This document shows positions 1 to 37,709 of a stretch of DNA of 64,000 nucleotides, in pieces. The notes under the pieces are model-generated. The model did not search any database and was not told the DNA's origin. It saw only the letters and a program-made list of their open reading frames with translations. Origin of the DNA: an uncultured Gemmatimonadales bacterium (GTDB lineage Bacteria; Gemmatimonadota; Gemmatimonadetes; Gemmatimonadales; GWC2-71-9); assembly GCA_963697755.1 (NCBI GenBank), contig CAVOPE010000014.1:107817-171816 (forward strand). The letters run 5' to 3'. A program made the translations under genes and the position numbers. Numbering within the stretch: position 1 is the stretch's first letter; every line of letters begins with the position of its first letter.

Positions 1-189
1 TCCGAGCGCGGCCACGTACGGAGCCGCGAGCAGGCAGATCGCCCCGGGAATGACGATCGGCCGGCGCAGCACGAGCCCGCCGGCCAGCGCGGCGGCGGCG
101 ACGAATCCCGCCAGCAGCGTCGCGTTGACGAGGTAGCCGTCCTCGGCGATCGCGGCCAGCCAGATCCCGGTCCCGGCAGCGCCCACCAC
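1..189 (-). CDS. membrane protein, 5' portion only (continues beyond window start)
   Basis: Minus-strand frame is stop-free to the window edge with G/C-rich third codon positions. Read from GTG at 189 (or 186) it gives VVGAAGTGIWLAAIAEDGYLVNATLLAGFVAAAALAGGLVLRRPIVIPGAICLLAAPYVAALG, i.e. hydrophobic helices. It lies directly downstream of the DUF58 gene. Not in the ORF track because it runs off the edge; start uncertain. Confidence 0.35.
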   Translation of the reverse strand, partial: MVGAAGTGIWLAAIAEDGYLVNATLLAGFVAAAALAGGLVLRRPIVIPGAICLLAAPYVAALG

Positions 190-206
190 GGCCGCGGCGC
201 CGGCGG

Positions 207-2434: not shown

Positions 2435-2880
2435 CAGAGCGCCTCCAGGGAGACGACGACGTGCCGGAGCGACGCCAGGTCGATCCCCTCGGCAAACCGG
2501 TCGTGAGGCGGCTCGCGGTCGGAGCGCACGAGCTCCCACGTGTCGTCGCCGAGGGCACGCCGTGCAACCTCGGGACTTGCGTCGAGGTCGATCCCGCGGC
2601 GCGAACGGAGCAGCTCATACGCGATTCGGCGGAGTGTGGGGCGCAGGCGGAAGTGGAGGTCGAACGCCGTGGTCTGCCCGAGCGTAACCTCGCGCTCGAT
2701 CCGCTCGAGCTCGGGGACGCGCAGGGACGGGCGCGGGCGCCGGTTGAGAGCTGCATCCACGGGCGACGTCGTGCGCTGCGGCAGCGAGGCGCGGAGGCGT
2801 GCCAGCAGGTAGGCGAGGACGAATGCCGCGAGCAGGAGCGCGTAGACGCGCACGACGATCTCGGCCCGTCTCCCACGCAT
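2434..2880 (-). CDS. small membrane-anchored protein, first gene of the MoxR operon
   Basis: Within ORF 2434..2952(-). ATG at 2880 gives [29 protein letters not shown] (one TM helix) followed by a soluble domain. Its stop overlaps the MoxR start (ATGA). No family recognised. Confidence 0.55.
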
Positions 2881-3586
2881 CCTCGATCGCCATCTTGACG
2901 CCGCCCGGCTCCTGGTCGGGGAGGGCACCGTCGATCGAGTCGGTCCGGGCAATGATGACGATATTCACCCCGGTCGCCTCGGCTGCGGCCTTGATGGCCT
3001 TCAGCTTGGCCAGCCACTGCTGGCGGGTCACCAGCACCTTGTTCCGCTTCTGCTTGCCGACGTTGACGATGTGACCGCAGGTGCGGTTGGACGGGTCCTG
3101 GTTCTCCAGGTGGACACCGCCGGCCCCGACCCGGATCAGCTCGGTCGCCAGGGTGAACGTCTGGGTCGGTCCGCCGAAGCCCGCTTCCATATCCACGAAG
3201 GCCGGGGGTGCGTCGAGCAGGTCCTTCCCCTCGGTGTCGTACCAGCGGGTGTTGCGGGCGCCCTCGATGCCCTTCCGCATCTCCAGCACGAGCTCCACCA
3301 TCTGGTGCGATTGATAGATGCCGATGTCCGGGTACAGGCTCTTCGTGGCCGCGAGCTGCCAGCCGCTGCCGTACAACGTCTTGAACCCGAGGGTCGTCAT
3401 GATCGCCGAGGTGAAGGCGTCGTACGCCCCGGCGGTATGAAGGAAGGATTTCTTGGCTCGGGCTTCGTGCAAGAGCCGGCGGAGCTTGTCGGCCGGGACC
3501 TCGCTCTCCGGCGGAGCAAAGAGCCGGCCAACCGCCTCGGCCGGGTAGGACACCTTGGAGGACGAGGGTGGGGTCGCAGTCGCCAT
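2881..3586 (-). pseudogene. isocitrate lyase / PEP mutase family gene, 3'-truncated (about 235 codons of homology)
   Basis: ORF 2615..3586(-) starts after a GAAGGAGAGAG RBS-like stretch. Family motifs are FVDMEAGFGG, NRTCGHIVNVGKQKRNKVLV (ICL-type K-x-CGH signature region) and IIARTDS. Homology stops at about AIEDAWE, exactly where the next gene's ATG (2880) lies. The expected 100-150 C-terminal residues appear in no frame. Confidence 0.6.
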
Positions 3587-3607
3587 GGCTCTCTCCTTCA
3601 GATGGAT

Positions 3608-3637
3608 CGCGGCGCCCCCGTCGGGCGGGGCGCCGCG
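3608..3637. promoter_or_regulatory. perfect 11-bp GC hairpin (CGCGGCGCCCC / GGGGCGCCGCG, 8-nt loop) in the leader of the ICL-like gene
   Basis: Read directly from the sequence. It lies about 20 nt upstream (minus-strand sense) of the RBS/ATG at 3586, in the divergent intergenic region. Function unknown. Confidence 0.3.
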
Positions 3638-3674
3638 CGTCTTGGCCGTGCCGGAGGGCGTCGGCCAAAAGGTT

Positions 3675-3690
3675 TGTGAAACTATTCACA
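3675..3690. promoter_or_regulatory. TGTGA-N6-TCACA palindrome (CRP/FNR-family operator-like)
   Basis: tTGTGAaactatTCACAa is a perfect match to both half-sites of the classical CRP consensus core. It lies in an AT-richer patch of the 230-bp divergent region between the ICL-like gene and the first polysaccharide gene (ATG 3817). Confidence 0.45.
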
Positions 3691-3816
3691 ATATGGCAAG
3701 AGGTCGCCGCTTGCGCCAGACCCCCTAGTTTGGGGTGGCGTCCCGAACCGCGCAATTCCTCGCAGGCCCGGGTCCCGCTTAGATTTGGGCGACCCGAGCC
3801 CTGACCCCCGAGAGCC

Positions 3817-4878
3817 ATGTTCATCACCAAGCCGTTCGTCCGGGACCGGAAGATCCGGTTCGCCCTCGTCGGCTGCGGCCGCATCTCCACCAACCATTTC
3901 GACGCCCTCGACCGGCACAAGGACCGGGCGGAGCTCGTCGGCGTCTGCGACATCGACCTGGACAGCCTGTCCCGCGCCGAGGCGCGGACCGGGGCGCCGG
4001 GGTTCCGGTCGCTCGAGGCGATGCTGGCCGGCACCGAGGCCGACGTGGTTATCCTGGCCACGCCCAGCGGGCTCCACGCCGACCAGGCCATCCAGGTGGC
4101 CGCCGCGGGCCGGCACGTGATGACCGAGAAGCCGATGGCCACCCGCTGGCGGGACGGGAAGCGGATGGTCTACGCCTGCGACCAGGCCGGTGTCCATCTC
4201 TTCGTCGTCAAGCAGAACCGGCGGAACGCCACCCTGCAACTGCTCAAGCGGGCGGTCGAGAAGAAGCGCTTCGGCCGGATCTACATGGTCAACATCAACG
4301 TCTTCTGGGCCAGGCCGCAGTCGTACTACGACAGCGCCGCCTGGCGGGGGACGTGGGAATTCGACGGCGGCGCCTTCATGAACCAGGCCAGCCACTATGT
4401 CGACCTGCTGGACTGGCTGATCGGGCCGGTGGAGAGCGTGCAGGCCTACACGGCCACGCTGGCCCGCAACATCCAGGTGGAAGACACGGGCGTCGTGAGC
4501 ATCCGCTGGCGGACGGGCGCGCTCGGCAGCATGAATGTCACGATGCTGACTTACCCGAAGAACCTCGAGGGCTCGATCACGATCATCGGGGAGAAGGGCA
4601 CGGTCCGGATCGGCGGGGTGGCCGTCAACCAGATCGAGCAATGGTCGTTCGCGGAGCCGGATCCCGACGACGCGAGCGTGCAGCAGGCGAGCTACGATAC
4701 GACGTCGGTCTACGGCATCGGCCATCCGCTGTACTACGACAACGTCATCAAAGCGCTGCGAGGCGAGGAGCCCCCCGCCACCGACGGGCGCGAGGGGCTC
4801 CACTCGCTGGAGATCCTTATCGCCACTTACATCTCCGCGCGAGACGGGCGCCGCGTCGCGCTGCCGCTCGAGGTCTAA
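3817..4878 (+). CDS. Gfo/Idh/MocA-family NAD-dependent sugar oxidoreductase (WbpB-like)
   Basis: ORF 3817..4878. N-terminal Rossmann [16 protein letters not shown], then [30 protein letters not shown], and a C-terminal GFO_IDH_MocA_C-like half. First gene of the sugar cluster. Confidence 0.85.
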
Positions 4879-8464: not shown

Positions 8465-9760
8465 ATGCTCCTCGGCCTCTCGCTCGGCGCGATCGCTGGA
8501 ATTGGCATCCTTGTCAACTTTGCGTACCAGTGGTACGTGCTGACGACGCTGGGACCGGGCCTGGCCACCGACGCGCTGTTCGCGGGGACGATCGTCCCGC
8601 AGCTGGTCTTGATCATCGCGAGCGGATCAATCAGCTACGTGCTGATTCCCCTGCTGGCGATCAAGGAGACGGAGGGCCGCGCACGGCTGGCCTGGACGTA
8701 TTTCCAGGTCATCGGTCTCACTTGTCTCGCGCTCGTGGCAGTCCTGATGCTCACTGCCGAATTCTGGGTACCGCTCACGGTGCCCGGGTTTCCGCCCGCC
8801 AACGCGGAATTGGCGGTACACCTGACCCGCATCCAGCTGCTGGCGACCGCCTTCACGGCGGTCACCGGGGTCGAGCTGGCGCTGCACCACGCCAAGAATC
8901 ATTTTCTGCGGGCGGAGAGTGCCGGCGTCGTGGCGTCCGTGGCAGGCCTCGGCTTCATCGTCTGGGGACTTCCCCGCATGGGCATAGAGGCCGGGGCCTG
9001 GGGCATCGTGATCCGGGCCATACTCCAGATGCTGCTTCTCGCGCCTGGGATGGGGGCGTATCGGGCTCCTCATTGGTCGGATCCCGGCCTCGCGCTTGGC
9101 ATTCGACGATCGGCGCCGCTCATCGGCGGCCAATTGTACTTCAAGAGCGACGCCATGTTCGATCGCTTTCTCGCGTCGCTGGCGCCGCCCGGCGCCTTGT
9201 CCCTCTATCACGTCTCCCAGCAGCTCTACGCGTCGGCCGCGATGGTCATGAACCGCGCGGTTGTGGCACCCGTAGTGCCAAGGCTGTCCCGGCTCGCGAG
9301 CGTGAACGACTGGCCGGAGTTCATCGCCCAGATCAACCGGCGACTGGTCGTGATGGTGGCTGTAACAGTCGCGATCTCCGTCGGCCTGGCGCTGCTCGGC
9401 CGGCCGGTTCTGGGTCTGATCTTCGGTCGAGGGGAGTTCACGGCGGACCGGGTGGCGCACCTCTGGTGGCTGCTGCTCCTCCTCTCGGGCGTGTGGGTGG
9501 GAGGACCGCTCGGTCAGATCCTGTCCACGTCCTTCTATGTCCAGGGTGACACGCGAACCCCGACTCGCGTCGGCATCGTTGGCTTCACCCTGGCCATCGG
9601 CCTCAAGCTGTTTGCCTTTCGGAGGTACGGGATCGAAGGGCTGGCCTTGGCCGCGAGTGCCTATTACGTGCTGAACGCGACAGCGTTGCTCATCCTCCTG
9701 CGTTGCAGGACTCGTCGGGTGCCGGGCTCGATGCCGCTCGAAGGGCTGGCCAGCCCGTGA
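8465..9760 (+). CDS. MurJ/MviN-family (MOP superfamily) polysaccharide flippase
   Basis: ORF 8465..9760, with about 12 hydrophobic segments. The MurJ-like central motif is RSAPLIGGQLYFKSDAMFDRFLASLAPPGALSLYHVSQQLYASAAMVMNRAVVAPVVPRLS. Position in a Wzy-type locus fits a Wzx role. Confidence 0.8.
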   Translation: MLLGLSLGAIAGIGILVNFAYQWYVLTTLGPGLATDALFAGTIVPQLVLIIASGSISYVLIPLLAIKETEGRARLAWTYFQVIGLTCLALVAVLMLTAEFWVPLTVPGFPPANAELAVHLTRIQLLATAFTAVTGVELALHHAKNHFLRAESAGVVASVAGLGFIVWGLPRMGIEAGAWGIVIRAILQMLLLAPGMGAYRAPHWSDPGLALGIRRSAPLIGGQLYFKSDAMFDRFLASLAPPGALSLYHVSQQLYASAAMVMNRAVVAPVVPRLSRLASVNDWPEFIAQINRRLVVMVAVTVAISVGLALLGRPVLGLIFGRGEFTADRVAHLWWLLLLLSGVWVGGPLGQILSTSFYVQGDTRTPTRVGIVGFTLAIGLKLFAFRRYGIEGLALAASAYYVLNATALLILLRCRTRRVPGSMPLEGLASP

Positions 9761-10704
9761 GCGCGCCCGTCGCCCTCGAGCGCGTCGGCTGCCCGCTCGG
9801 CTGCCCTAGCGACGACGAGCTCGTGATCACCGGCCGGGATCGGCTCCACGAGCTGCCGGGAGAATTCCGGGTGGTCCGCTGCCGGGGTTGCGGTCTCATG
9901 CGAACCGATCCTCGGCCAACGCTCGACGGGATCGACTTCTACTATCCCGCGGACTACCGGCCCTACCTCACGACGCGTGTTGGCACGACCCCAACCGCCA
10001 AGGTGCCCTCAAGCGGGCGAGTCCGCACCGCGATTCGGCGGCTGCTCAGGCCCGTGGCGCTTGAGCTGCCGCCGCTTCCGCCCGGCCGACTGCTCGAGAT
10101 TGGTTGCGGCTCGGGCGCCTTCTTGCACAGCATGGCCCAGAAGGGGTGGTCCGTCGATGGCATCGAGCGCTCTCCTGACGCCGGTGCCTCGGCGCAGGCA
10201 CTGGGCTACCCGGTGCACATCGGACCGCTTGAAACAGCCCCCGATCCTCCTGCTCCATACGATTTGGTCGTCGGCTGGATGGTGCTGGAACACCTGCACG
10301 AGCCGATCGCGACTCTGGAGAAGCTGGCCCGATGGAGCGCGACCGGGGCGTGGCTGGTGGCCTCGGTGCCCGATGCCGGCGCGCGGGAGTTCACCTGGTT
10401 CGGTGACGCTTGGTACGCGCTACACCTGCCGGGACACCTTTTTCACTATACGCCGCGCACATTAGGGCGAGTGCTGGAGCGTGGGGGATGGAAGCTCGAG
10501 CGCGTATACTGGCACGACAATCCGAACAATCTGCTGCTCAGCCTGCGCTATCTCTGGCTCGAGCGCGGGTGGTCCACCGGCGCCGACCTGCTGCAATCCG
10601 TCGCCGACGGGAAGCGGTTTCCCTGGGCGCGACTCTTCCTTGGCAAGCTCCTGGGCCGTCTGCGGTCCAGTGGGAGGATGACCATTTGGGCGCGACGGAT
10701 CTAG
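9757..10704 (+). CDS. class I SAM-dependent methyltransferase with N-terminal Cys4 zinc-ribbon
   Basis: Within ORF 9703..10704. GTG 9757 overlaps the flippase TGA. CPLGC...CRGCG zinc ribbon, then LLEIGCGSGAF (motif I) and YDLVVGWMVLEHL. Confidence 0.8.
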   Translation: MSAPVALERVGCPLGCPSDDELVITGRDRLHELPGEFRVVRCRGCGLMRTDPRPTLDGIDFYYPADYRPYLTTRVGTTPTAKVPSSGRVRTAIRRLLRPVALELPPLPPGRLLEIGCGSGAFLHSMAQKGWSVDGIERSPDAGASAQALGYPVHIGPLETAPDPPAPYDLVVGWMVLEHLHEPIATLEKLARWSATGAWLVASVPDAGAREFTWFGDAWYALHLPGHLFHYTPRTLGRVLERGGWKLERVYWHDNPNNLLLSLRYLWLERGWSTGADLLQSVADGKRFPWARLFLGKLLGRLRSSGRMTIWARRI

Positions 10705-10757: not shown

Positions 10758-11804
10758 TTGGTCGGCTGGCGCCCGACCTGCAGTGACCCCAAGGTCGCTA
10801 GTGTCCGGATCCGCTGCCTCAACCCGCTGGGCGAGTTGCATCGGCAGAACTACCCCGTCGAACTGTACCAGGCCGCTCGGCGAAGCTCGTATGCGGCAGT
10901 GATCTTCTCCAAGGTTTACGACGAAGCCACCCAGGCCGAAGCGGACAAACTTCGGTCCTCTGGGGCAAGGGTCGTGCTGGATCTGTGCGACAATCACTTC
11001 CTTGATGCCTCGGGAGCGGAAGTTGTCCGCAAGGCGTCGATCCGGCTACGCCGGATGGTCGAACTGGCCGACGAGTTCGTGGCGTCCACCGATGCGATGG
11101 CAGAGGTGCTGCGGCAGGAGGCCGGCGGGCAGAGGCCGGTGACAGTAATCGGCGATGCGGTGGAGACGAGCATCGACAGCGTCCGGAGTGCCCCATGGCA
11201 CGAATGGCTCGCACGGCGACGCCTGCGGGCGCTCACCGAGCGACTGGCGGTCCAATCGGTCTCGCGGCTGGTCTGGTTCGGCTCGCATGGGGGGCCATCG
11301 GGCGACCATGGCATGGCCGATCTGGAGACGATCCGCCCACTGCTGGAATCGCTCCATCAGGAGCGCCCGCTGAGTCTCACGGTCATCAGCAACTCGGCAG
11401 AGAAGTTCGACCGGCTCATTCGGCCGTGGCGCTTGCCCACCGAGTACCTCGAGTGGAGTCCGATCACTTTTCTGTCGGCGCTCCGCTTGCACGAGATCGC
11501 GGTTATCCCGATTCGGCAGACCCCCTTCACTCGCTGTAAGACCAACAATCGCCTGGTCACGGCCCTGGCCGCCGGGCTCGCGGTGGTGGCGAGCTCGATT
11601 CCGAGCTATCTGCCGTTTGCCTCGACCTGTACGCTCGACGACTGGTCCGGAGGGCTTCGACGATACATCCTCGACCCGGAGTCCCGGCGCCGCGCGGTGG
11701 CGGCGGGGCAGGCCCTGGTGCAGCGGGAGTGGACCCTCCCGGTGATCGCGGATCACTGGCGGCACTATTTTGACGGCTTTCGCGAGAGGGCACCGCAGCG
11801 CTGA
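10758..11804 (+). CDS. putative glycosyltransferase (GT-B-like, family not assigned)
   Basis: Within ORF 10410..11804, whose first third overlaps the previous gene. Coding begins about VRIRCLNP. The C-terminal half (LVWFGSHGG..., TRCKTNNRLVTALAAGLAVVASSIPSY) looks like a GT-B nucleotide-sugar binding half. TTG 10758 is the nearest in-frame start; start uncertain. Confidence 0.5.
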   Translation: MVGWRPTCSDPKVASVRIRCLNPLGELHRQNYPVELYQAARRSSYAAVIFSKVYDEATQAEADKLRSSGARVVLDLCDNHFLDASGAEVVRKASIRLRRMVELADEFVASTDAMAEVLRQEAGGQRPVTVIGDAVETSIDSVRSAPWHEWLARRRLRALTERLAVQSVSRLVWFGSHGGPSGDHGMADLETIRPLLESLHQERPLSLTVISNSAEKFDRLIRPWRLPTEYLEWSPITFLSALRLHEIAVIPIRQTPFTRCKTNNRLVTALAAGLAVVASSIPSYLPFASTCTLDDWSGGLRRYILDPESRRRAVAAGQALVQREWTLPVIADHWRHYFDGFRERAPQR

Positions 11805-12044
11805 TTCCGCCAGTGCGGGCATGATGGAGCGCCGCGTGGAGCGCTGTTCGAGTGGTTCAGACGGCAGCCCGGTCCTGAGGGCGACGAGAGCTCCCATGGG
11901 GGCCGGCTCGCTGAAGGACGCCGCGGATGTCCGGGAGCGACGCACTCGCTACTTCAGCACGAGGGACAAGCGATCGTGCCAGGTGCAGCCGCCCAGCTTC
12001 TGATTCGAAGTCGGTCACGAGCGTTGTATGGTTTTCTCGAGCGG

Positions 12045-12782
12045 ATGTCATTCGCCCGACGGGCCCTGGCGTCTCTCGGAGCCAACCGGCGGTTCCGGCA
12101 GACTCATCCCCGAGTTGCCGTCCCCCCCTTGCGACTGCTTTGGGACGCGCAGTCCTACACGGACTACCAGCGGTACTGGGACTCGGGGCGGACGAGCGCC
12201 GAATACTACTGGGACCTGATCCGGACCAGACTTCCTGCTTCCCCTGGCGAGCCGATCCGCGTGTGCGAATGGGGGTGCGGACCTGCTCGAATAATCCGAC
12301 ACTTCCCTGACCTCTGCGTCGGCTACCCGGCGACGATCCTTGCCACCGACTACAACGCCGCGTCGATCCGATGGTGCAAGGCCCACATTGCCGGTGTGAG
12401 CTTCCATCACAACGATCTGGCGCCTCCTCTCCCGTTCGAACGCGGGCAGCTCGACGCGCTCTACTGCCGCTCCGTGTTCACCCATCTGTCCGAAGAAATG
12501 CACTACCGCTGGATCGAGGAGCTCGGACGGGTCGTTCGGGCCGGAGGGTTGATTGTTTTGTCGACTCAGGGCGCCGCTCATGCGAGCCGTCTTCTGCCCG
12601 AGGAGCGCGAACAATATGATCGAGGCGAGCTGGTCGTGCGACAACTCGCGCAGGAGGGTAAGCTGTTTTTCGCTGCATTTCACAATCCGGCCTTTGTCCG
12701 GGGGAGGCTCCTGGCCGGCATGCGCGTGGAGGAGCATCAGGAAGGTCGCAATACGCAGGATGTCTGGGTGGTACGTCGTTAG
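12045..12782 (+). CDS. class I SAM-dependent methyltransferase
   Basis: Within ORF 11976..12782. ATG 12045. Motif I VCEWGCGPARI, then LDALYCRSVFTHLSEE and VVRAGGLIVLS. Confidence 0.7.
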   Translation: MSFARRALASLGANRRFRQTHPRVAVPPLRLLWDAQSYTDYQRYWDSGRTSAEYYWDLIRTRLPASPGEPIRVCEWGCGPARIIRHFPDLCVGYPATILATDYNAASIRWCKAHIAGVSFHHNDLAPPLPFERGQLDALYCRSVFTHLSEEMHYRWIEELGRVVRAGGLIVLSTQGAAHASRLLPEEREQYDRGELVVRQLAQEGKLFFAAFHNPAFVRGRLLAGMRVEEHQEGRNTQDVWVVRR

Positions 12783-13012: not shown

Positions 13013-14098
13013 GTGGGATCACTGCCATTGAGGCTCGAGGAGCTTGTTAAGACTCGCATTGCGGAGGTCGCCGCCACCCTCCTCGGTATCCTCGCGTTGA
13101 CCGCTTGCGGCGCTGAGACAGGTCCGCCCGAGCCCCTCCCCAAACCCGACATCCTCGACAACCAGATCGTGTTCGCGTCCGATCGCGGCGGACACAAAGA
13201 GATCTACGTCACGAATCCCGACGGATCCGGCGTCATCAAGCTGTTGGACAGCCCCACCGGCGACCTCAATCCGGTGCCGTCGCCGGACGGGACCCGAGTC
13301 GCCTTCTTCCGTCATGTCGACACCGTCATCCTCCTGCAGATCATGAACACCGACGGTAGCAACCTGATCAGCACCTACTTTCGGACAGACGACGCCACCT
13401 GGTCGCCCGACGGCTCCCGGCTGGCGATGCTGGTAACCGATGCTCGCGGGATTTGGTTCACACCCAAAGTCGTCGATCGGACGGGCTCCGTGGTGTCCGC
13501 GCTCGATCTCTCTGCCTGCGGCGGCACCAGTCCGTCCTGGTCACCCGAGGGGTCCCGCTTGGCATACGTGCTTTGCCCCTCTGGCGCGGTTTACGTGCGT
13601 GACGTCGCCGCCGGCACCACAACCACGCCTGTGCCCGATTCCGAGATTGACGATGACGCCTATCTTCCCGCCTGGTCGCCTGACGGGGCGGCGATCGCCT
13701 TCGCAATCCGCGTCGACGACCCGGACCGGACTGGCATTTTCGTGGTCGGGCCGGACGGAAGTGGCCTCACCAGACTGGCGCCCGACTCCGCGGTCCGGAC
13801 GCTGCGATGGTCCCCAGACGGCTCCAAACTGGCGTTCGTCTCGGGTGCCGGCGGGGACAACGAGGTGTATGTGATAAACCCCGACGGGGCAGGACGGTTG
13901 AACCTCACGCAGAATCCCGCTGACGACAGTCACGTGACCTGGGCCCCGAGCGGCACCCGACTGGCATTCCAGAGCGACCGCACTGGCAATCGCGAGATCT
14001 TCGAGATGGATGTCGACGGCACGCACGTGGCCAACCTCACCAATAGCCCGGCGGACGATGCCGAGCTGGCCTGGAGTTCGGCCAGGGTCGCCCCATAG
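13013..14098 (+). CDS. TolB-like beta-propeller lipoprotein (PD40/WD40-like repeats)
   Basis: ORF 13013..14098. Lipobox-like LALTAC. Repeated SPDG/WSPDG blades (VPSPDGTRVAF, TWSPDGSRLAM, SWSPEGSRLAY, AWSPDGAAIAF, RWSPDGSKLAF, TWAPSGTRLAF) with IYV..PDGSG linkers. Confidence 0.8.
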   Translation: MGSLPLRLEELVKTRIAEVAATLLGILALTACGAETGPPEPLPKPDILDNQIVFASDRGGHKEIYVTNPDGSGVIKLLDSPTGDLNPVPSPDGTRVAFFRHVDTVILLQIMNTDGSNLISTYFRTDDATWSPDGSRLAMLVTDARGIWFTPKVVDRTGSVVSALDLSACGGTSPSWSPEGSRLAYVLCPSGAVYVRDVAAGTTTTPVPDSEIDDDAYLPAWSPDGAAIAFAIRVDDPDRTGIFVVGPDGSGLTRLAPDSAVRTLRWSPDGSKLAFVSGAGGDNEVYVINPDGAGRLNLTQNPADDSHVTWAPSGTRLAFQSDRTGNREIFEMDVDGTHVANLTNSPADDAELAWSSARVAP

Positions 14099-14104
14099 CG
14101 GAGC

Positions 14105-15745
14105 ATGAACGCGGACGGTCCTGGCGCTGCCGCGGGCGCTGGCGCGCAGGACCGGACCAAGGTTGTTTTCAGCGCGTCGCGGAGGCCGGCGACACCACTG
14201 ACCAGGGGGCATGTGCAACATTTTTTCGACTGGGCCAGGGGAGCCGTTCGGAGCGAGGAACCCTGGCTGATTCTCGGTAAAGGACCGAGCTTTTCGCAGC
14301 GCGATCTTTACGACCTCTCGGGCTACCGACTGTTGAGCCTGAACCACGTCGTGCGCGAGCTGCCGGTCGCGCTGGCGCACATGATCGATCTGGATGTCGC
14401 GGACGCGTGCGCCGAGGCGCTGGGCGAGAACGCCGAGTTCTTGGTGATGCCGTGGTATCCGCATGTCAGGAACCGCGCTGGCAGCGAGAGCCTGGCGGAG
14501 CTGGTCCCGAAGTTCCCCGGCCTCCGGCGTCTGGAGGCCGAGGGCCGGCTCCTATGGTATGACCTGAGCACGTCACCGGTCCGCCACGGCCCGGGCCCGG
14601 TTGTGCAGGCGACCTATTTTAGCGCCGAGGCGGCGCTGAGCCTCCTGGCTTTGGCCGGGGCCCGGCGGGTCCGCTCGCTCGGCGTGGACGGGGGTAACGC
14701 ATACAGCCAAGCGTTCGACGACCTCAAGGACAAAACGCTGCTGGCCAACGGCCGGCCGAACTTCAACCTGCAGTTCAAGGGACTGGCCAGGACCATCATG
14801 AGCACAGGTGTGGACTACGCTCCGCTCGACGTCGAGAGCCCGATTCGAGTGTACGTCGGCAGCCAGGAAGCCCAGATGCTGCCGGTGAAAGTGCTCGAAT
14901 ACTCGATCCGCAAGCACGCCAGCATGACGGTCGAGGTCTTTCCGCTGCATCAGGCCCACGTCGACTTCTCGATGCCCGCCGCGGTCGAGAACCGTCCGCG
15001 CACGCCGTTCTCATTCCAGCGGTTCTACATCCCGCAGCTCGCCGGATTTCGCGGGCGGGCGATCTACGTCGACTCGGACATGCAGGTCTTTCAGGACATC
15101 CGGAAGCTGTGGACGCTGCCGTTCGAGGGAGCCGACCTCCTGGCCGCGCGCGAAGCGGGCGAGAGCGGCCGTAAACCGCAGTTCAGCGTCATGCTGCTCG
15201 ATTGCGCGGCCCTCCGGTGGGATCTGAACGACATCGTAGCGCGGCTGGATCGCGGCGAGCTGACCTACGAGACCCTCATGTACGAGATGAAGGTCGCTCG
15301 GAGCATCCGGGCGGGCATCGACCCGACCTGGAACTCGCTTGAGCGCTATGAGGATGGCCGCACGGCCCTCCTTCATTACACCGACATGATGACACAGCCC
15401 TGGATCTCCCAGAACAATCCCCTGGGGTATCTCTGGGTGCGTGACCTGATCGGGGCGGTCGATGCGGGCGCAATCACCCGCGCCTTCGTCGAGGAGCACG
15501 TGCGCGAGGGCAACGTCCGCCCCACGCTGCTCTATCAGCTGGACCACCGGGTGGAAGAGACGGCACTCCTGCCCAAGGTCGCCCGAGAGCTCGACGACGC
15601 GTTCGTCCCTCCCTACCGGAAGATGGGGGCGCATGCCGGCACCCGACTGGGGCGCCTGGGACGCGTGCGCGCCATCCTGCGGCACGTCTACCAGCGGAGC
15701 CCACTCTTCCGCATCGAGCGAAAGCTGCGAGCGCCGGACAATTGA
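14105..15745 (+). CDS. two-domain protein: N-terminal DUF115/MptE-like domain fused to a C-terminal GT8 glycosyltransferase
   Basis: ORF 14105..15745. The C-terminal half has a GT8 look (IRVYVGSQEAQMLPVKVLEYSI, FSFQRFYIPQLAGFRGRAIYVDSDMQVFQDIRKLW with a DxD, and LHYTDMMTQPW). The N-terminal about 230 aa has LILGKGPSF ... HMIDLD ... SLGVDGGNAY, a pattern I associate with DUF115/Maf-type domains. That assignment is from memory only. Confidence 0.7.
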   Translation: MNADGPGAAAGAGAQDRTKVVFSASRRPATPLTRGHVQHFFDWARGAVRSEEPWLILGKGPSFSQRDLYDLSGYRLLSLNHVVRELPVALAHMIDLDVADACAEALGENAEFLVMPWYPHVRNRAGSESLAELVPKFPGLRRLEAEGRLLWYDLSTSPVRHGPGPVVQATYFSAEAALSLLALAGARRVRSLGVDGGNAYSQAFDDLKDKTLLANGRPNFNLQFKGLARTIMSTGVDYAPLDVESPIRVYVGSQEAQMLPVKVLEYSIRKHASMTVEVFPLHQAHVDFSMPAAVENRPRTPFSFQRFYIPQLAGFRGRAIYVDSDMQVFQDIRKLWTLPFEGADLLAAREAGESGRKPQFSVMLLDCAALRWDLNDIVARLDRGELTYETLMYEMKVARSIRAGIDPTWNSLERYEDGRTALLHYTDMMTQPWISQNNPLGYLWVRDLIGAVDAGAITRAFVEEHVREGNVRPTLLYQLDHRVEETALLPKVARELDDAFVPPYRKMGAHAGTRLGRLGRVRAILRHVYQRSPLFRIERKLRAPDN

Positions 15746-16797
15746 TCCCGCCGCCGCGCAAGCGCCGCCGATGGCCGGCGGAGTGGACCCTAACTGTCGG
15801 CCTGATGGCTTGTCTCGGGACGCATCCGTATCAGGCTCCCCGGATCAGCCGGAACCCAAGCCTTGGCGAAGGGATGGTAGTCGACGGCGGCGGCTTCCGC
15901 GCCGCGCGTGGGTCTTGGCTGGAGCTGCGAGCGCCCGCGGGCGCGAACGGCGGCCAGGTGACCATCAAGTCCAACCTCTCCGCGGGCTGCTCGCTCTGGT
16001 CGTGGGTGTGGAACGACTTCGAGTTCGTCAACGTGCACGACTACGGCCGCCAGATCCAGACGGCCTTCGTGAGCGACCGCGGCGCGGCCCACGAAGCCAA
16101 CCCGACCGAGGCCGGCAGCCGCTTCTCGGCTTGGCCCGGCTCGCACAAGGGCTCGCCATGCGTGCGGGCCGCCAACGTGCTGCCCGCGACGCAGGTGACC
16201 TCTGCTTCGCCCTTCGAATACGAGCCGACGCGGTGGGGTGGCGGCTACCGGCGGCCGTTCCTCTGGAAGGACGTTCGCATAGGCAAGGAGATCACCCTCG
16301 ACTACCTCGGGCTCGGCCCGGTGGCCCGCTACGCCAGCCTCGTGACCGTGCCGGCGGACGTGCCGAGCTCGGGTGTGGAGATTCCCTCCGTCTACCTGCA
16401 TGCCAGCCTCCGCCGGTTCTACGGCTACGACGCCGCCACGCGGACGTTGTCGCTCCAGGATCCGGCGACCGTCGAAGGCGGGACGCTGCCGCCGTCGGGC
16501 TACGGCGGAGTCATCGCATCCACTCCGGACGGGTCGCGGGCGTTCGGCCAGTACGGCGTCGTGGACTCGCTCGGCGGCTCGGTGACTCCCGCTGCTGGCG
16601 GATTCAGCTACTTCCTGTTCCCGGACCCGACCGACACCCTCGGACCCGCGGCCAACGCGACGGCCAAGATCCGCGCGCTCCACGGCGGGCTCGTGCGCGG
16701 GGAAAATCGGATGACCACCTACCTGATGAGCGGGACCCTCGCCGAGGTCACGGCGCTGATGGACAGCCTGTACGCGCACCGGGAAGTGGCGCGCTGA
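15742..16797 (+). CDS. hypothetical protein (possible lipoprotein), no family recognised
   Basis: ORF 15742..16797. TTG 15742 overlaps the preceding TGA (TTGA). N-terminus RKRRRWPAEWTLTVGLMACLG is signal/lipobox-like. Alternative ATG at 15874. High GC3 throughout supports coding. Confidence 0.55.
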   Translation: MIPPPRKRRRWPAEWTLTVGLMACLGTHPYQAPRISRNPSLGEGMVVDGGGFRAARGSWLELRAPAGANGGQVTIKSNLSAGCSLWSWVWNDFEFVNVHDYGRQIQTAFVSDRGAAHEANPTEAGSRFSAWPGSHKGSPCVRAANVLPATQVTSASPFEYEPTRWGGGYRRPFLWKDVRIGKEITLDYLGLGPVARYASLVTVPADVPSSGVEIPSVYLHASLRRFYGYDAATRTLSLQDPATVEGGTLPPSGYGGVIASTPDGSRAFGQYGVVDSLGGSVTPAAGGFSYFLFPDPTDTLGPAANATAKIRALHGGLVRGENRMTTYLMSGTLAEVTALMDSLYAHREVAR

Positions 16798-19166: not shown

Positions 19167-20386
19167 GTGCGGGTCCGGTCGAGGTGGGCGGCGGCGAATG
19201 CCATCACGTAGACACGCTGCCGCGCCGCCCGCTCGGGATCCTTGAGGGCATGGTGCATCGCAACCGCCAGTTCGTCGCCGTTGCCGGCGGCGTAGTTGTA
19301 TCCCAGATCGTTCCCCTCGACCATCTCCCAGGCCTCGCCCGGCAGGCTGTTGATGACCGGGATCCCCGCCAGCAGGTAGTCGTTCAGCTTGTAGGAGTAC
19401 GCCACGTTGCCGCCGACCGCGAAGGTGTTGAGCCCGTAGTCCATGTGGCGGAGCAGCGCGACCAGGTCGCGGTGCGGCAGCAGGCCGGAGAACCAGCTTC
19501 GAAGTCCGATCTCCGCCGCGAGGGCGCGGAGCACCGGCTCAAGCTCACCCGCACCAAGACAGACGAGACAGGCCCCGGGGTGGTCCGTCTGCACCGCGCG
19601 CGCGGTGCGGACCACCAGCTCGAGGTCGTAGTTGCGTCCCAGGGTCCCCACGTACACGAAGCGGAAATCGGCTGCCGCAATCTCGGGCGGCAGCGCGACC
19701 GACGACACCGCCTCCGCGTAGTACGCCAGGTCGCCGCCGAGGTAGACGCAACGCGCCGGCGGAAGCCCGCGCGGCCCGCGCACGCGGTCGGCGCCCTCGG
19801 CGTAGCGCGCCGATTCGGCCACGACGGTGTCGGCCAGGCCGAGGGCCGCGTCGGCGGTCCAGCGCCAGAGCCGGAACAGCGGGCGCTCGTACGGCCTGAG
19901 CCGGTGCACGGCCAGCAGCGACTCGGGCCAGGTGTCGTGCACATCGATCACCAGCCGGCTGCCTATCGCCCGGGCGAGGAGGCCCAGCAGCAGCGCGCTA
20001 AGATTGTGCGGGATTGGGCAGTAGATGCTGCGCGGGCGGCCCCTGCGCACGAGCTCCCACACTGCCGCCAGCGCGAGGCCCAGGTCGAACACGAGGTGGC
20101 TCAGCACCCGCCGCACGCTGACGTTCGCCGAGTAGCCCGGCTCGAACACGCGTACGAAGCGCAGACCGGGCCGCTCGAGCGCTGGCTTGGGGCGCTTGGC
20201 CTGATGGTCGAACCCGCTCGTGAAGAAAGTGACACGCGCCCCCCGCGCGCGCACCCGCTCCGCGAGGTAGAGAAACCGGTCGCCCTCGGCCATGCGGGCC
20301 GGGTTGGTGAACGGCCCCACGACCCAGACCAGTGGCGGCTCCGCCGCTTGAATCCGGCCGGGTGCCGGGTTAGCTATCTCGCTCAT
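19133..20386 (-). CDS. GT4-family glycosyltransferase (WbuB/WcaI-like)
   Basis: ORF 19133..20386(-). GT-B N-terminal half (VWVVGPFTNP...RFLYLAERVRARGARVTFFT) and C-terminal half (FVYVGTLGRNYDLELVV, GIPVINSLPGEAWEMVE). Convergent with the GT2 gene, overlapping it by 34 bp. Confidence 0.85.
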   Translation of the reverse strand: MSEIANPAPGRIQAAEPPLVWVVGPFTNPARMAEGDRFLYLAERVRARGARVTFFTSGFDHQAKRPKPALERPGLRFVRVFEPGYSANVSVRRVLSHLVFDLGLALAAVWELVRRGRPRSIYCPIPHNLSALLLGLLARAIGSRLVIDVHDTWPESLLAVHRLRPYERPLFRLWRWTADAALGLADTVVAESARYAEGADRVRGPRGLPPARCVYLGGDLAYYAEAVSSVALPPEIAAADFRFVYVGTLGRNYDLELVVRTARAVQTDHPGACLVCLGAGELEPVLRALAAEIGLRSWFSGLLPHRDLVALLRHMDYGLNTFAVGGNVAYSYKLNDYLLAGIPVINSLPGEAWEMVEGNDLGYNYAAGNGDELAVAMHHALKDPERAARQRVYVMAFAAAHLDRTRTYAPIVDELLR

Positions 20387-20402
20387 GCCTCATAACCGCC
20401 GG

Positions 20403-21608
20403 ATGCGGATCTACCTCTCCGTGCCGCACATGGGCACGCTCGAGCAGACGTACGTCGCCGAGGCCTTCGCCACCAACTGGCTCTCGTCCGCGGGTCCGCA
20501 TCTGCAAGCCTTCGAGAACGAGGTGGCCGAGCTGCTCGGCGGCGGCGTGAGCACCCTGGCCACCTCGAGCGGCACCGCGGCGCTGCACCTCGTACTCCGA
20601 GCGGCTGGAGTGGGGGCCGGGGACCGGGTGGCGGTCTCGACGCTCACGTTCGCCGGCTCGGTGTTCCCTATCGACTACCTCGGCGCGCGGCCGGTCTTTC
20701 TCGACAGCGAGCCCGAGTCCGGCAACCTCGATCCGGCGCTGTTGCGCGACTATTTGCGGGCGGCGGCGGCGCGCGGCGAGCTGCCCAAGGCCCTCATCGT
20801 CGTGCATCTCTACGGGCAGCACGCCGACCTGGACGCGATCGCCGCCGCGTGCGCCGAGTACAACGTACTGATGATCGAGGACTCGGCCGAATCGCTGGGC
20901 GCCACCTACAAAGGGCGGCAGACCGCCGTCACCGCACCGCTCTCCATCCTGAGCTTCAACGGCAACAAGATTATCACCACGACTGGCGGCGGCATGGTGG
21001 TTGCCAAGGACCCGGCGGTGCTGGCTCGAATGCGGAACTGGGCCAACCAGGCGCGCGAGCCCGCCGTGGAGTACCTCCACCGGCAGGTCGGGTTCAACTA
21101 CCGGATGAGCAACGTGCTCGCCGCAATCGGGCGGGGGCAGCTCACCGTCCTCGAGGACCGGGTACTGGCCAGACGTGCCGTCGCCGAGCGCTACGGCCGC
21201 CTCCTGGGCGACATTCCCGGCGTCGAACTGCAGCGGGAAGGTCCATGGGGACGCCACACGCGGTGGCTGTCGGTGATCTACCTCCATCCGGCCACGCATC
21301 CCGGCGGACCCCGGCGTGTGATCGAAGCGCTCGGCACGCGCGGCATCGAGGCCCGCCCGGTCTGGCGGCCGATGCACACGCAGCCGCTCTACGCCGAGGC
21401 CGAGCGGGTCGGAGGGGAAGTGGCAGAGCGGTTGTACGGCACCGGCCTCTGCCTCCCGTCGTCGTCCAGTCTCACGATCCACGAGCAGGACGAGGTCATC
21501 GAAGCGATCAGACAGACGCTGGTCCGCGCGGACGCAGCAGCACCTCGGCCAGCTCCTCGATCGACTGGGTCGTCCAGTCCGGCTGGTGTTCGGCGGTCGC
21601 CGGGGTGA
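20403..21608 (+). CDS. DegT/DnrJ/EryC1/StrS-family PLP-dependent sugar aminotransferase (PglE-like)
   Basis: Within ORF 20385..21608; ATG 20403 preferred (MRIYLSVPHMG). Motifs SSGTAALHLVL, LIVVHLYGQHADLDAI, SILSFNGNKIITTTGGGMVV (PLP-lysine region), GFNYRMSNVLAAIG. The last 33 codons overlap the convergent HAD gene. Confidence 0.9.
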   Translation: MRIYLSVPHMGTLEQTYVAEAFATNWLSSAGPHLQAFENEVAELLGGGVSTLATSSGTAALHLVLRAAGVGAGDRVAVSTLTFAGSVFPIDYLGARPVFLDSEPESGNLDPALLRDYLRAAAARGELPKALIVVHLYGQHADLDAIAAACAEYNVLMIEDSAESLGATYKGRQTAVTAPLSILSFNGNKIITTTGGGMVVAKDPAVLARMRNWANQAREPAVEYLHRQVGFNYRMSNVLAAIGRGQLTVLEDRVLARRAVAERYGRLLGDIPGVELQREGPWGRHTRWLSVIYLHPATHPGGPRRVIEALGTRGIEARPVWRPMHTQPLYAEAERVGGEVAERLYGTGLCLPSSSSLTIHEQDEVIEAIRQTLVRADAAAPRPAPRSTGSSSPAGVRRSPG

Positions 21609-22203
21609 GCCCGTGGTACTCTCCCGCCGCATGGCGGGCCCACACAGCCTGCATGCCCGCTGCCTTGGCCCCGCGGAAGTCCTTCGCCGGATTGTCTCCC
21701 ACATAGACGCAGTCGGACGGTAGCACCCCGAGCGCCCGACTCACCGCCAGAAACGGCTCGGGGCTCGGCTTCCACGCGCTTCGACCCAGCGTGTCGGAGA
21801 ACACCACCGCGTCGAACCAGGGCGCCAGTCCGCTGGCCAGCCACTTCCGTTCCTGCATCGTCGCCGGCCCGTCCGACACCAGCCCCAACCGATAGATCCG
21901 CTTGAGCTCGCCTAGGAGCCGCTCGACGCCGGGAAGCGGCGTGAGGACAGGGGAGTGCGTCCGGTAGGCCTCGACCAGCGCGTCCACGGTGACGTCGAGG
22001 CCCGGACGGCTGGCCAGCCAGCGATCGAAGGTGCTGCCGCGCATGCCACTCCGGTACAGACCGACCAGCTCGTCGTACGCCGCCGCCGCGGCGACACCCC
22101 CGGCGAGGGCGGCCCGATCGGCCGCGGCCCGAAATCCGCCGAGCACGAAGTCGCGCTCGGCGACCAGCGTGTCGTCAAGGTCAAAGACGACGGCGCGCCA
22201 CAT
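21508..22203 (-). CDS. HAD-superfamily hydrolase
   Basis: ORF 21508..22203(-). Motif I VVFDLDDTLV, motif II LGLVSDG, motif III/IV KPSPEPF ... VYVGDNPAKD. Confidence 0.85.
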   Translation of the reverse strand: MWRAVVFDLDDTLVAERDFVLGGFRAAADRAALAGGVAAAAAYDELVGLYRSGMRGSTFDRWLASRPGLDVTVDALVEAYRTHSPVLTPLPGVERLLGELKRIYRLGLVSDGPATMQERKWLASGLAPWFDAVVFSDTLGRSAWKPSPEPFLAVSRALGVLPSDCVYVGDNPAKDFRGAKAAGMQAVWARHAAGEYHGLTPATAEHQPDWTTQSIEELAEVLLRPRGPASV

Positions 22204-23182
22204 TGGCCAGGTCGCTCTCGCTGAGAAAGAACGCGTCGTCGAACCGGGTCACGTACAGGCCCTCGCGGAAGCCGTCCGGGCGGCCGGGGTCGTAGGGGAC
22301 GCCAGCGACCTCGGCGAGCAGGAGCGCCGGGCCGTGGACGCCCGCGGCGATCCCCAGGGGCGCGCCCCCGCCGAAGCGGGCGTTGATCTCGGTGAAGTGT
22401 GGCTCGCCGTCGCGCAGCATGCACTGCACCGTGAGGGGCCCGCGGCCGGGCAGGGCTTCGGCGATCCGCCGGCAGCCGTCCAGGATGCGGTCGTCGCGCA
22501 CCGTCACGCCCTTCACCACCTCTCCGCCGCGGACTTCGAGACGCCGCCGCGAGACCAGCCCTCGGACGCGGCCGTCGAGCCCGCACACGACGTCGGTCGT
22601 GATCTCGGGGCCGGGCAGGTGCTCCTCGATCATGGGGAACGGCACGTAGCCGAGGAAGAAGCGCAGCTCGTCGGGGCTTCGGGCCAGGAAGGCGTGCTGG
22701 GCGGCGCTCCCATCGCGGGGCTTTAAAAACACCGGGTACGTGAGTGCCTCCGGATCCACCCCGTCGGCCACCCAACCCTGCGCCACGGCCAGGCCGAGCT
22801 TCCGGAAGAAGGCCTTGGTTCGCCACTTGTCACGGGTGATGTCGGCCGCCTCGGCGGAGATCACCCCGGCCTCGGCGCCGGCCTCGTGAAACGCCTCGCG
22901 GTGGCGCGCGAGCACGGGAATGTCCGGGTCGGTGAGGGGCAGCACGAGGGCGACGCCCTCCTCGCGGCAGATTCCGAGGAGCTCGGGGACAAACGCCGGG
23001 TCGCGGGTGGGGGGCACCAGATACCTGCCATCGGCTACCTGCAGGGTGGGCGCAAGCGGGTTGATGTCGGTCGCCAGCACCCGGACCTCGATGCCGAGGC
23101 GAGGCCCGGCGTCGTGGAAGGCGCGGACGAGCTCCACCCGGCGCCCTGCGCTGGTCAGGAGAACGGTGACCCGAGCGGTCAT
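22181..23182 (-). CDS. ATP-grasp domain ligase
   Basis: Within ORF 22181..23218(-); ATG 23182 (MTARVTVLLTSAGRRVELV) sits behind a GGGGAG RBS-like stretch. ATP-grasp features DKWRTKAFFRKLG, YPVFLKPRDGSAA, MIEEHLPGPEITTDV, FTEINARFGGG. Confidence 0.85.
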   Translation of the reverse strand: MTARVTVLLTSAGRRVELVRAFHDAGPRLGIEVRVLATDINPLAPTLQVADGRYLVPPTRDPAFVPELLGICREEGVALVLPLTDPDIPVLARHREAFHEAGAEAGVISAEAADITRDKWRTKAFFRKLGLAVAQGWVADGVDPEALTYPVFLKPRDGSAAQHAFLARSPDELRFFLGYVPFPMIEEHLPGPEITTDVVCGLDGRVRGLVSRRRLEVRGGEVVKGVTVRDDRILDGCRRIAEALPGRGPLTVQCMLRDGEPHFTEINARFGGGAPLGIAAGVHGPALLLAEVAGVPYDPGRPDGFREGLYVTRFDDAFFLSESDLANVARRRL

Positions 23183-23186
23183 GCTG

Positions 23187-23771
23187 TCAGCTCCCCTGGA
23201 ATTCCGTGGTGCCTCCATCGACCGGGCTCACGCCCCGTCCTTCCAGCACTCGCGCGACTGTTCGCACCAGGATCGAGAGGTCGAGGCCGAGCGAGTGGTG
23301 ATCGACGTACCAGACGTCGAGTGCCAGCCGCTCGGGCCAGGTCTGCGCGTTCCGGCCCTGTATCTGGGCCCAGCCCGTCAGGCCGGGCGGTACTTCGTGG
23401 CGCCGGGCCTGCAGCGGCGTGTAGCGGGATAGATAGCGGACGGGCAGGGGCCGGGGACCCACCAGGCTCATGTCGCCCCGGCAGATGTTCCAGAGCTGCG
23501 GCAGCTCATCGAGGCTCCAGCGCCGGAGCCAGCGGCCCAGCGGGGTGAGCCGGATGGCGTCGGTCGCGACTTCGAGCTCAGGGCTCGGGGCGGGGCGCAT
23601 CGTCCGGAACTTGTACAGCCGGAATGGACGGCCTCCCAGGCCGGCGCGCTCCTGCACGAAGATGACCGGCGGGCCGAGTCGCGCGCGCACTGCGAGGGCG
23701 ATCGCGAGCAGGAGCGGCGCGGTGAGGAGCAGTCCCATGCCGGCGAGCGCGAGGTCCAGGGCGCGTTTCAT
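23187..23771 (-). CDS. undecaprenyl-phosphate sugar phosphotransferase, small single-TM type (PglC/WbaP C-terminal domain family)
   Basis: Within ORF 23187..23825(-); ATG 23771 (MKRALDLALAGMGLLLTAPLLLAIALAV). Motifs GPPVIFVQERAGLGGRPFRLYKFRTM, DELPQLWNICRGDMSLVGPRP, PGLTGWAQIQG. Confidence 0.9.
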   Translation of the reverse strand: MKRALDLALAGMGLLLTAPLLLAIALAVRARLGPPVIFVQERAGLGGRPFRLYKFRTMRPAPSPELEVATDAIRLTPLGRWLRRWSLDELPQLWNICRGDMSLVGPRPLPVRYLSRYTPLQARRHEVPPGLTGWAQIQGRNAQTWPERLALDVWYVDHHSLGLDLSILVRTVARVLEGRGVSPVDGGTTEFQGS

Positions 23772-37684: not shown

Positions 37685-37709
37685 TGCGGCACGGATCCGT
37701 CCTGCTTCG

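Follow-up and report, generated by a model that had tools for sequence, protein, structure and literature searches.

A stretch of 64,000 nucleotides (nt) from an uncultured Gemmatimonadales bacterium (GenBank assembly GCA_963697755.1, contig CAVOPE010000014.1, positions 107,817 to 171,816 of the forward strand), referred to here as the window, contains a gene that joins an N-terminal Rossmann-like domain (the N-domain) to a C-terminal domain resembling glycosyltransferases of family GT8. We analysed this fusion gene, its homologues and its neighbours following a preliminary description made from the letters of the sequence. The 546-amino-acid (aa) open reading frame (ORF) given in that description is present exactly as described, running from an ATG at 14105 to 15745 on the plus strand, and it holds all of the motifs that had been quoted (LILGKGPSF, HMIDLD, RSLGVDGGNAY, YIPQLAGFRGRAIYVDSDMQVF and LHYTDMMTQPW). 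Its location was likewise found as reported: the gene stands between a TolB-like gene and an orphan ORF, its stop codon overlaps the TTG start of the latter (TTGA), and the region from 7 to 16 kb of the window has a G+C content (GC) of 0.62–0.67 against 0.70–0.75 in the flanks.

Reading frame and start codon

The fusion ORF is one real gene, and neither a chance frame nor the product of a frame error. A merger of two genes by a frame error, which the preliminary description had named as a possibility, is ruled out by the architecture of the homologues, the uniform codon periodicity, the confident structural model and the occurrence of both domains within one ORF at 79 of 80 genome loci; these loci come from 80 species-representative genomes of about a dozen phyla, found by the motif WL[IVM][LF]GKGPS, to which all genome counts below refer. 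The coding pattern extends evenly across the whole frame (GC of 0.85 at third and 0.43 at second codon positions, GC3 and GC2) in a genome of ~70% GC, and the long ORFs on the opposite strand carry the mirror-image GC bias of shadow ORFs. Database searches returned more than 1,400 matches to the fusion protein, and nearly all of the 120 best homologues span ~85–99% of the query, are ~470–580 aa long and share its architecture. The full-length AlphaFold model reached a predicted local distance difference test score (pLDDT) of 89.4 and a predicted template modelling score (pTM) of 0.87.

The start codon required correction. Because the motif M-x-x-F-F-[DE]-W, which in the window falls on the GTG at 14213, forms the N-terminus of 95 of the 120 best homologues, and because a database protein of 100% identity (P0001) is 510 aa long, this GTG is very probably the true start and the product 510 rather than 546 aa. 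Residue numbers refer to the 510-aa protein unless stated otherwise, and adding 36 converts them to the numbering of the 546-aa ORF. Coordinates are collected in Table 1.

Table 1. Coordinates in the window of the fusion gene, its domains and motifs, and the neighbouring genes
Feature	Position	Strand	Basis or remark
Fusion gene, 510-aa two-domain protein and stop	14213..15745	+	codon periodicity, model, homologues
Stretch of 36 codons upstream of the GTG, probably untranslated	14105..14212	+	homologue starts, length of P0001
N-domain, residues 1–210, Rossmann-like, predicted nucleotide-binding, MptE/DUF115–GT42–SteA fold group	14213..14842	+
Loop G22-K23-G24-P25-S26 after strand 1	14276..14290	+	counterpart of CstII G8-N9-G10-P11-S12, placed on GNGPS of GT42 by hhalign
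L43-N44-H45 after strand 2	14339..14347	+	counterpart of CstII C30-N31-Q32, register from hhalign
F136-S137 ... G149 ... G157-V-D159-G160-G161	14618..14695	+	spacing as in CstII S132-x11-G144-x7-G152-x-D154, alignment by hhalign
GT8-like GT-A glycosyltransferase domain, residues 211–470	14843..15622	+	PF01501, Foldseek
D287-S288-D289, DxD metal/nucleotide-sugar motif	15071..15079	+	invariant in 46 homologues
H388-Y-T-D-M-M-T-Q-P396-W397	15374..15403	+	H388, T390, D391, M392, Q395, P396 and W397 invariant in 46 homologues
Basic helical tail, poorly conserved	15623..15742	+	pLDDT 42–59, predicted helices, column conservation 0.45
MurJ-like flippase	8465..9760	+	PF03023 E 3.6e-47; in L002/L003 in the same order; 11/80 genomes
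Methyltransf_23 S-adenosylmethionine (SAM) methyltransferase, conserved partner	9703..10704	+	Pfam E 2.9e-26; near the fusion gene in 32/80 genomes
GT-B-like protein, conserved partner	10761..11804 (start approximate)	+	weak Glyco_trans_1_2 match; near the fusion gene in 31/80 genomes, within 150 nt in 19
Second methyltransferase	11976..12782		with the TolB-like gene, between the conserved block and the fusion gene
PD40/TolB-like gene	13013..14098		upstream neighbour of the fusion gene
351-aa orphan ORF	15742..16797		downstream neighbour of the fusion gene; no family match

The C-terminal domain

The assignment of the C-terminal half to GT8 in the preliminary description was borne out, with the qualification that, as judged from sequence and predicted structure, the domain is a divergent GT8-type domain of GT-A fold in which the DSD motif is intact and the C-terminal His is conserved. 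PF01501 (Glyco_transf_8) matched the protein with 27.6 bits (E 2.6e-6), narrowly passing the gathering cut-off of 24.3, and the same family was matched by 46 of 89 representatives (best E 6.6e-9). Comparison of the C-terminal half with the PDB by Foldseek gave as top matches the GT8 protein 3tzt (E 8.4e-7, target template modelling score (TM-score) 0.61), GlyE, LgtC and glycogenin, together with LARGE1 and WbbM through their GT8 domains, and the related UGGT, each with a probability of 1.00.

The segment from H388 to W397 is presumably the counterpart of the C-terminal motif H-x-x-G-x-x-K-P-W of LgtC-type enzymes, of which the canonical Gly and Lys are replaced here by D391 and Q395. On the combined pattern of sequence and model, the domain is probably catalytically competent. 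It shares with LgtC, GlyE, glycogenin, LARGE1 and WbbM the GT-A fold, the DxD, the C-terminal His...Pro-Trp and a PF01501 score above threshold; unlike these enzymes, the fusion protein continues into a helical C-terminal extension of ~100 residues and a basic tail. The last 34 residues include ten Arg or Lys and two acidic residues, and this tail may hold the enzyme at the membrane as an association helix.

A search of a plasmid collection returned only distant relatives of the GT8-like half alone (matches H1–H12, ~28% identity, in Roseomonas, Pseudomonas and Paracoccus), which lie in or beside genes annotated as 'ELM1/GtrOC1 family putative glycosyltransferase'; no N-domain was found in this collection.

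The N-terminal domain

The preliminary description had related the N-terminal half to DUF115/MptE-like proteins. This relationship is supported, from sequence patterns and models, at the level of fold or superfamily, and does not extend to membership of the Pfam family. The call rests on structural matches to MptE-like proteins and to SteA, on sub-threshold matches to PF01973, and on a motif spacing shared with the sialyltransferase CstII.

Searches of Pfam, NCBIfam, PHROG and PDB sequences with the single N-domain sequence and two family profiles gave nothing significant, and weak matches to NHase_alpha, DUF4072 and LOV/PAS domains were discarded as noise. Modelled alone, the domain was predicted with confidence (pLDDT 92.7, pTM 0.91) as a three-layer alpha/beta structure with a parallel sheet. 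Its sole significant Foldseek neighbour among solved structures was SteA of Corynebacterium glutamicum (PDB 9hmz; E 1.2e-4, probability 1.00, TM-score 0.42–0.48, identity 14%). The conserved pocket of SteA superposes on the adenosine monophosphate (AMP) site of thiamine pyrophosphokinase (TPK) and on the cytidine monophosphate (CMP) site of CstII, and the SteA protein is stabilized by guanosine and uridine diphosphates (GDP and UDP) (PMC12977500). The N-domain matches the part of SteA with this phosphonucleotide pocket, whereas the N-terminal swivel-like domain, the long linker helix, the dimerization interface, the C-terminal transmembrane segment and the operon with SteB are features of SteA only. 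The contexts also differ: SteA controls peptidoglycan hydrolases as a cell-division regulator of Corynebacteriales, and the N-domain occurs in the context of polysaccharide synthesis.

Among predicted viral structures (BFVD), 13 matches to the N-domain were found at E<=1e-3. The closest structural matches were stand-alone uncharacterized viral proteins of ~195–220 aa (TM-score 0.65–0.70, E down to 4e-10); A0A7M3UPA7 of Pyramimonas orientalis virus and A0A516MAS9 are examples of such ~200-aa look-alikes. Three phage proteins (A0A6J5PVH5, A0A6J7XC21 and A0A6J5L5C1; E 1.2e-4 to 6.5e-3, probability 1.00, query TM-score 0.52–0.60) bear the UniProt name '6-hydroxymethylpterin diphosphokinase MptE-like', a name that belongs to the whole proteins of 540–700 aa and not specifically to the aligned region. 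One further match is a 714-aa 'methyltransferase domain containing protein', and viral GT29 sialyltransferases matched more weakly. Phage proteins were seen to join an N-domain-like fold to methyltransferase domains.

PF01973 (MptE-like, formerly DUF115/Maf_flag10) was the sole Pfam family to match the N-domain repeatedly among diverse members, with 5 of 42 and 6 of 89 (11/131), all below the gathering score of 34.6 bits (best E 1.1e-4). Two weak matches, which did not include the one of best E, were inspected and scored 13–14 bits; in one of these, P0255, residues 18–51 align with profile positions 26–62, the GKGPS loop included.

The most conserved motifs of the N-domain (G22-K-G-P-S26, N44, S137, G149, G157-x-D159 and Y164) correspond to G8-N-G-P-S12, N31, S132, G144, G152-x-D154 and Y162 of CstII, and the spacing S-x11-G-x7-G-x-D is identical in both (the CstII sequence was checked against PDB 1RO7). 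Across 42 diverse members G22, G24, P25 and N44 are invariant and K23 nearly so. The conserved polar residues K23, N44, D59, R112, Y116, S137, D159, Y164 and Q187 are kept down to ~35% identity and lie mostly in loops after predicted strands, with R112 and Y116 flanking or within strand 5; in sequence and model this suggests an active-site-like pattern. Column conservation is 0.69 for the N-domain and 0.75 for the GT8-like core.

A resemblance between CstII and the Maf DUF115 domain has been published (bioRxiv 10.1101/2020.06.03.131540), and seven GT42 proteins (P0285, P0305, P0316, P0351, P0375, P0380 and P0384) have precomputed matches to both PF06002 (GT42) and PF01973. Because these sialyltransferase homologues match both, the two families overlap at the profile level, and this overlap, together with the resemblance of Maf to CstII, is why we treat DUF115, GT42 and related families as one fold group. 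PF06002 itself matched none of the N-domain members, and a search of the PDB with a GT42 profile did not find Maf (5MU5).

Within this group the N-domain combines features of several relatives. With PF01973 proteins, among them the Maf glycosyltransferases, which transfer nonulosonic acids to flagellin, and the archaeal pyrophosphokinase MptE, it shares a Rossmann-like nucleotide-binding fold, the G-x-G-P-S loop after strand 1, a place among glycan-synthesis genes and fusions with methyltransferases. CA_C2196 of Clostridium acetobutylicum, a genuine DUF115 protein, is one such fusion and lies beside a DUF3880 and glycosyltransferase gene (PMC4000134). The N-domain lacks the domains that flank Maf N- and C-terminally, is joined to a GT8-like domain and occurs in polysaccharide rather than flagellin clusters, without associated CMP-sugar genes. 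With CstII and CstI (GT42) it shares G-x-G-P-S, the Asn after strand 2 and the S-x11-G-x7-G-x-D pattern, and differs in being ~50 residues shorter and in lacking a counterpart of H188 and R129.

Distribution and domain architectures

A profile search with the N-domain among 1.84 billion proteins returned 626 clusters at 50% identity. Of the best 150 clusters ~55% combine the N-domain with a GT8-like domain and ~35–40 are complete stand-alone proteins of ~205–215 aa, while the remainder show a variety of arrangements with methyltransferase (MT) and glycosyltransferase domains: MT-N-GT8, MT-N-GT2(-GT1-GT4), N-GT8-GT2, N-GT8 followed by a TylF-type MT, N-MT, N-GT2, GT2-N, N-GT1 and N followed by a coiled coil. 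In P0215 and P0188, MT, N, GT-A and Glyco_trans_1_2 domains are all found in a single polypeptide. Because it stands alone and is variously fused, the N-domain is, on these sequence architectures, an independent mobile module of glycan-synthesis proteins. C-terminal coiled-coil extensions in P0196, P0184 and P0202 (weak matches to CENP-F, crescentin and ATG16) are reminiscent of the 'rulers' of O-antigen chain terminators.

Genomes that carry the fusion include other Gemmatimonadales (70% identity), Acidobacteriota, Burkholderiales, Gammaproteobacteria, Nitrospirota and Planctomycetota, and further Verrucomicrobiota, Melainabacteria, Armatimonadota, Actinomycetes, Cytophagales and Rokubacteria, among them several cultured strains. 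The combination is common among soil and water bacteria, and its homologues are named in databases just as 'GT8', 'glycosyltransferase' or 'hypothetical'. A literature search found no paper on it, in agreement with the preliminary description, whose author was not aware of any characterization of the combination; yet it is widespread and not rare.

Genomic neighbourhood

The fusion gene lies within a cell-surface polysaccharide cluster at ~3.8–26 kb of the window. Besides the fusion gene and the orphan that follows it, the cluster contains genes for a GFO/IDH/MocA oxidoreductase, RmlD and a 4,6-dehydratase; for the MurJ-like flippase, the Methyltransf_23 protein, the GT-B-like protein, the second methyltransferase and the TolB-like protein; and for Wzy-like, GT2, GT4, DegT aminotransferase, ATP-grasp, Wzz-like and sugar-transferase-like proteins.

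The preliminary description had stressed the TolB-like gene and the orphan as neighbours. Both were rejected as functional partners, being found near the fusion gene in 3/80 and 0/80 genomes respectively; the conserved partners are instead the methyltransferase and the GT-B-like gene. The order MurJ-like, Methyltransf_23, GT-B-like, fusion recurs at loci L002 and L003, where the window Methyltransf_23 protein is 54% identical to an L003 gene product and the window GT-B-like protein 51% identical to the product of the gene directly upstream of the L002 fusion. That L002 neighbour (348 aa) had been considered as a match to the 351-aa orphan, and this was rejected; the L002 gene matches the window GT-B-like gene instead. 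As raw counts, 29 of the 80 genomes have a methyltransferase related to the query set used no more than 150 nt from the fusion gene, and 45 have one no more than 1.5 kb away. In ~14 of the 45 the methyltransferase is exactly one GT-B-like gene upstream of the fusion, and the nearest methyltransferase genes are co-oriented with it in 44 of 57 cases. Stand-alone N-domain genes also overlap methyltransferase genes, by 4 nt (L005 and L006).

At L008 (positions 1–4694) the N-domain gene, again a stand-alone one, is preceded by a Sulfotransfer_3 gene, for a decorating enzyme other than the usual methyltransferase, and by an overlapping gene for a 238-aa protein; the locus is beside a phage-type integrase and possibly on a mobile element. 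The Methyltransf_23 protein of the window has an N-terminal CxxC...CxxC segment resembling a zinc ribbon. At 20385–23218 of the window the cluster holds the DegT-type aminotransferase together with a PylC-like ATP-grasp enzyme, a pairing that suggested an amino sugar with an amide-linked substituent. A pathway for CMP-activated ulosonic acids was rejected as a conserved neighbour, with NeuB within 8 kb in 2/80 genomes and a CMP-sugar synthetase in 0/80; at L002/L003 (17008–18704) NeuB and a CMP-sugar synthetase (CTP_transf_3) do occur 5.5 kb downstream of the fusion gene, with housekeeping genes between.

Proposed function

We propose that the fusion protein is a bifunctional transferase of a methylated-glycan cassette, cytoplasmic and probably membrane-associated, and put the probability of this reading at about one half. 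The GT8-like module would transfer a hexose from a UDP-sugar by a retaining mechanism, giving an alpha linkage, with a divalent metal at D287, D289 and H388. The N-domain would bind a second nucleotide-activated donor in a pocket made up of G22–S26, N44, S137 and D159 and use it for a further transfer to the lipid-linked glycan that the GT8-like module acts on, and the adjacent methyltransferase would then methylate the product. The cassette of methyltransferase, GT-B-like protein and fusion protein, joined in some genomes (that of the window included) by the MurJ-like flippase, would in this way make a methylated glycan unit.

The general kind, a glycosyltransferase of several modules, is already known. 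WbbM (DUF4422/GT111 and GT8), LARGE1 (GT8 and GT49), WsaE (methyltransferase and rhamnosyltransferases) and WbdD (methyltransferase and kinase) likewise carry two nucleotide-dependent modules on one chain, and WsaE and WbdD are associated with methylation. The fusion protein differs from all of these in having a DUF115-like partner module, and it has no sequence kinship with them outside the GT8 domain. What is new here is an N-domain family without a database entry and the conserved cassette in which it occurs.

A number of observations weigh against this reading. For the GT8-like domain, the match to PF01501 covers just 65 residues (289–353 in the 546-aa numbering, on profile positions 72–135 of 253). 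LgtC-type enzymes carry the GT8 motif A-x-D-x-x-Y after strand 1; here the N-terminal nucleotide-binding motif is not recognizable, the sequence after strand 1 being V-G-S-Q-E-A-Q-M, and Q221 alone is nearly invariant in this segment, which the Pfam model leaves unaligned. It is because of this missing motif and unaligned region that we use the label 'divergent GT8-like'. For the N-domain, neither Maf nor CstII was among the top 50 Foldseek matches in the PDB, no family member reached the PF01973 gathering score, and neither the window protein nor any of 43 close homologues matched PF01973 at E<=10. In P0249, the other weak match inspected, residues 136–167 fall on PF01973 profile positions 50–81, out of the expected register. 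Alignment to GT42 by hhalign was full-length and in register, at probabilities of 5.2% and 10.6% (P 0.0075 and 0.0029), and block-shuffled templates equalled its score in 5 of 40 trials; because of these controls we do not take it as evidence of homology. With regard to catalysis by the N-domain, the catalytic H188 and R129 of CstII have no conserved counterpart (R, H or W at the aligned position 181, T or V at 134), and SteA, the closest relative of solved structure, is a regulatory protein without known enzymatic activity. The methyltransferase counts, too, are raw frequencies and no measure of enrichment over other polysaccharide glycosyltransferase loci.

The N-domain could instead be a non-catalytic nucleotide-binding module, regulatory or scaffolding in the manner of SteA, which senses a nucleotide or docks the methyltransferase or the GT-B-like protein and leaves the GT8-like domain as the only enzyme. 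The binding of GDP and UDP by SteA and the two missing CstII residues fit such a role, as do the recurrent, adaptor-like fusions and couplings of the N-domain with diverse catalytic partners and the pTM of the full-length model, which suggests a fixed two-domain assembly. Against it stand the stand-alone genes without a GT8-like partner in the same ORF, the nine polar residues kept down to ~35% identity and a conservation close to that of the GT8-like core; the characterized DUF115 members, Maf and MptE, moreover, are enzymes. Of the alternatives this one survives best, and we consider it unlikely.

Catalysis of a different kind is also conceivable, in which the N-domain is a phosphotransferase of MptE/TPK type that phosphorylates or pyrophosphorylates the glycan with adenosine triphosphate (ATP), after which its partner methyltransferase would methylate either this phosphate or the sugar and so complete a chain-end cap, by analogy with WbdD of Escherichia coli O9a. 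Two of its relatives in fold, MptE and TPK, are pyrophosphokinases that depend on ATP, and the AMP site of TPK superposes on the SteA pocket; the association with SAM-methyltransferases is tight and translationally coupled, with one further case of a sulfotransferase; and some N-domain members end in coiled coils, as WbdD-type terminators do. A kinase-type motif was not identified in the N-domain, however, and its conserved motifs fit the CMP-sugar site of CstII at least as well. The cluster in the window has Wzy-like and MurJ/Wzx-type genes rather than the ATP-binding cassette (ABC) transporter typical of capped O-antigens, and the WbdD kinase has an unrelated protein-kinase fold, so that the analogy is functional only. 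We regard a phosphotransferase as improbable.

Slightly more doubtful again is a Maf- or CstII-like transferase of CMP-activated ulosonic acids such as 3-deoxy-D-manno-octulosonic acid (Kdo), sialic, legionaminic or pseudaminic acid. In its favour, CMP-ulosonic acids are the donors of the characterized transferases of DUF115 and GT42 (bioRxiv 10.1101/2020.06.03.131540). The residues of the CstII CMP-binding motif are kept in the N-domain, and NeuB with a CMP-sugar synthetase is found 5.5 kb from the fusion gene at L002/L003. Most diderm bacteria can also supply CMP-Kdo. Against this stand the absence of R129 and H188 and the rarity of the pathway genes around the fusion: the NeuB and synthetase pair of L002 is split from it by housekeeping genes, and none of the cluster genes scanned in the window is of that type, rhamnose-pathway, aminotransferase and ATP-grasp genes being found instead. 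Finally, an artefact of two merged genes or a non-coding frame has a negligible probability. GC-rich DNA does yield many long spurious ORFs, and the first 36 codons here are probably not translated, but the same two-domain protein recurs in more than 1,400 database clusters and 79 of the 80 genomes, and the gene has uniform periodicity and a confident model.

A wider interpretation goes beyond the bifunctional transferase proposed above and is offered tentatively, with the odds somewhat against it. The N-domain may represent a new, widespread enzyme family drawn from the DUF115/GT42 fold, acting as a glycosyltransferase or as a phospho- or other group-transferase and working obligately with a SAM-methyltransferase. 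The cassette of MurJ-like, methyltransferase, GT-B-like and N-GT8 proteins would then assemble a methylated surface glycan not yet described, or a cap for the chain end, in phyla and classes such as Gemmatimonadota, Acidobacteriota, Proteobacteria, Planctomycetota and Melainabacteria, and relatives of the N-domain that stand alone would occur in phages and giant viruses. Should the N-domain prove catalytic, the few known transferases of DUF115/GT42 type would gain a further family, their range would extend from the sialylation of flagellin and lipooligosaccharide to general polysaccharide assembly, and the surface glycans of little-studied soil phyla would become more accessible. Its own family model is merited for annotation. 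The question is open to direct testing in cultured bacteria that have the gene, among them Rhizobacter sp. Root1221, Methylobacter marinus A45, Azoarcus sp. L1K30, Ramlibacter aurantiacus and Methyloversatilis thermotolerans.

Other features of the window

The orphan ORF downstream of the fusion gene looks coding (GC3 0.89) and matched nothing in Pfam or NCBIfam; its N-terminus, LTVGLMAC, resembles the lipobox of lipoproteins. The deepest GC trough of the window (36000–38000, GC 0.59–0.64) contains an ORF, 36574–37476, with a weak resemblance to one of the methyltransferase queries.

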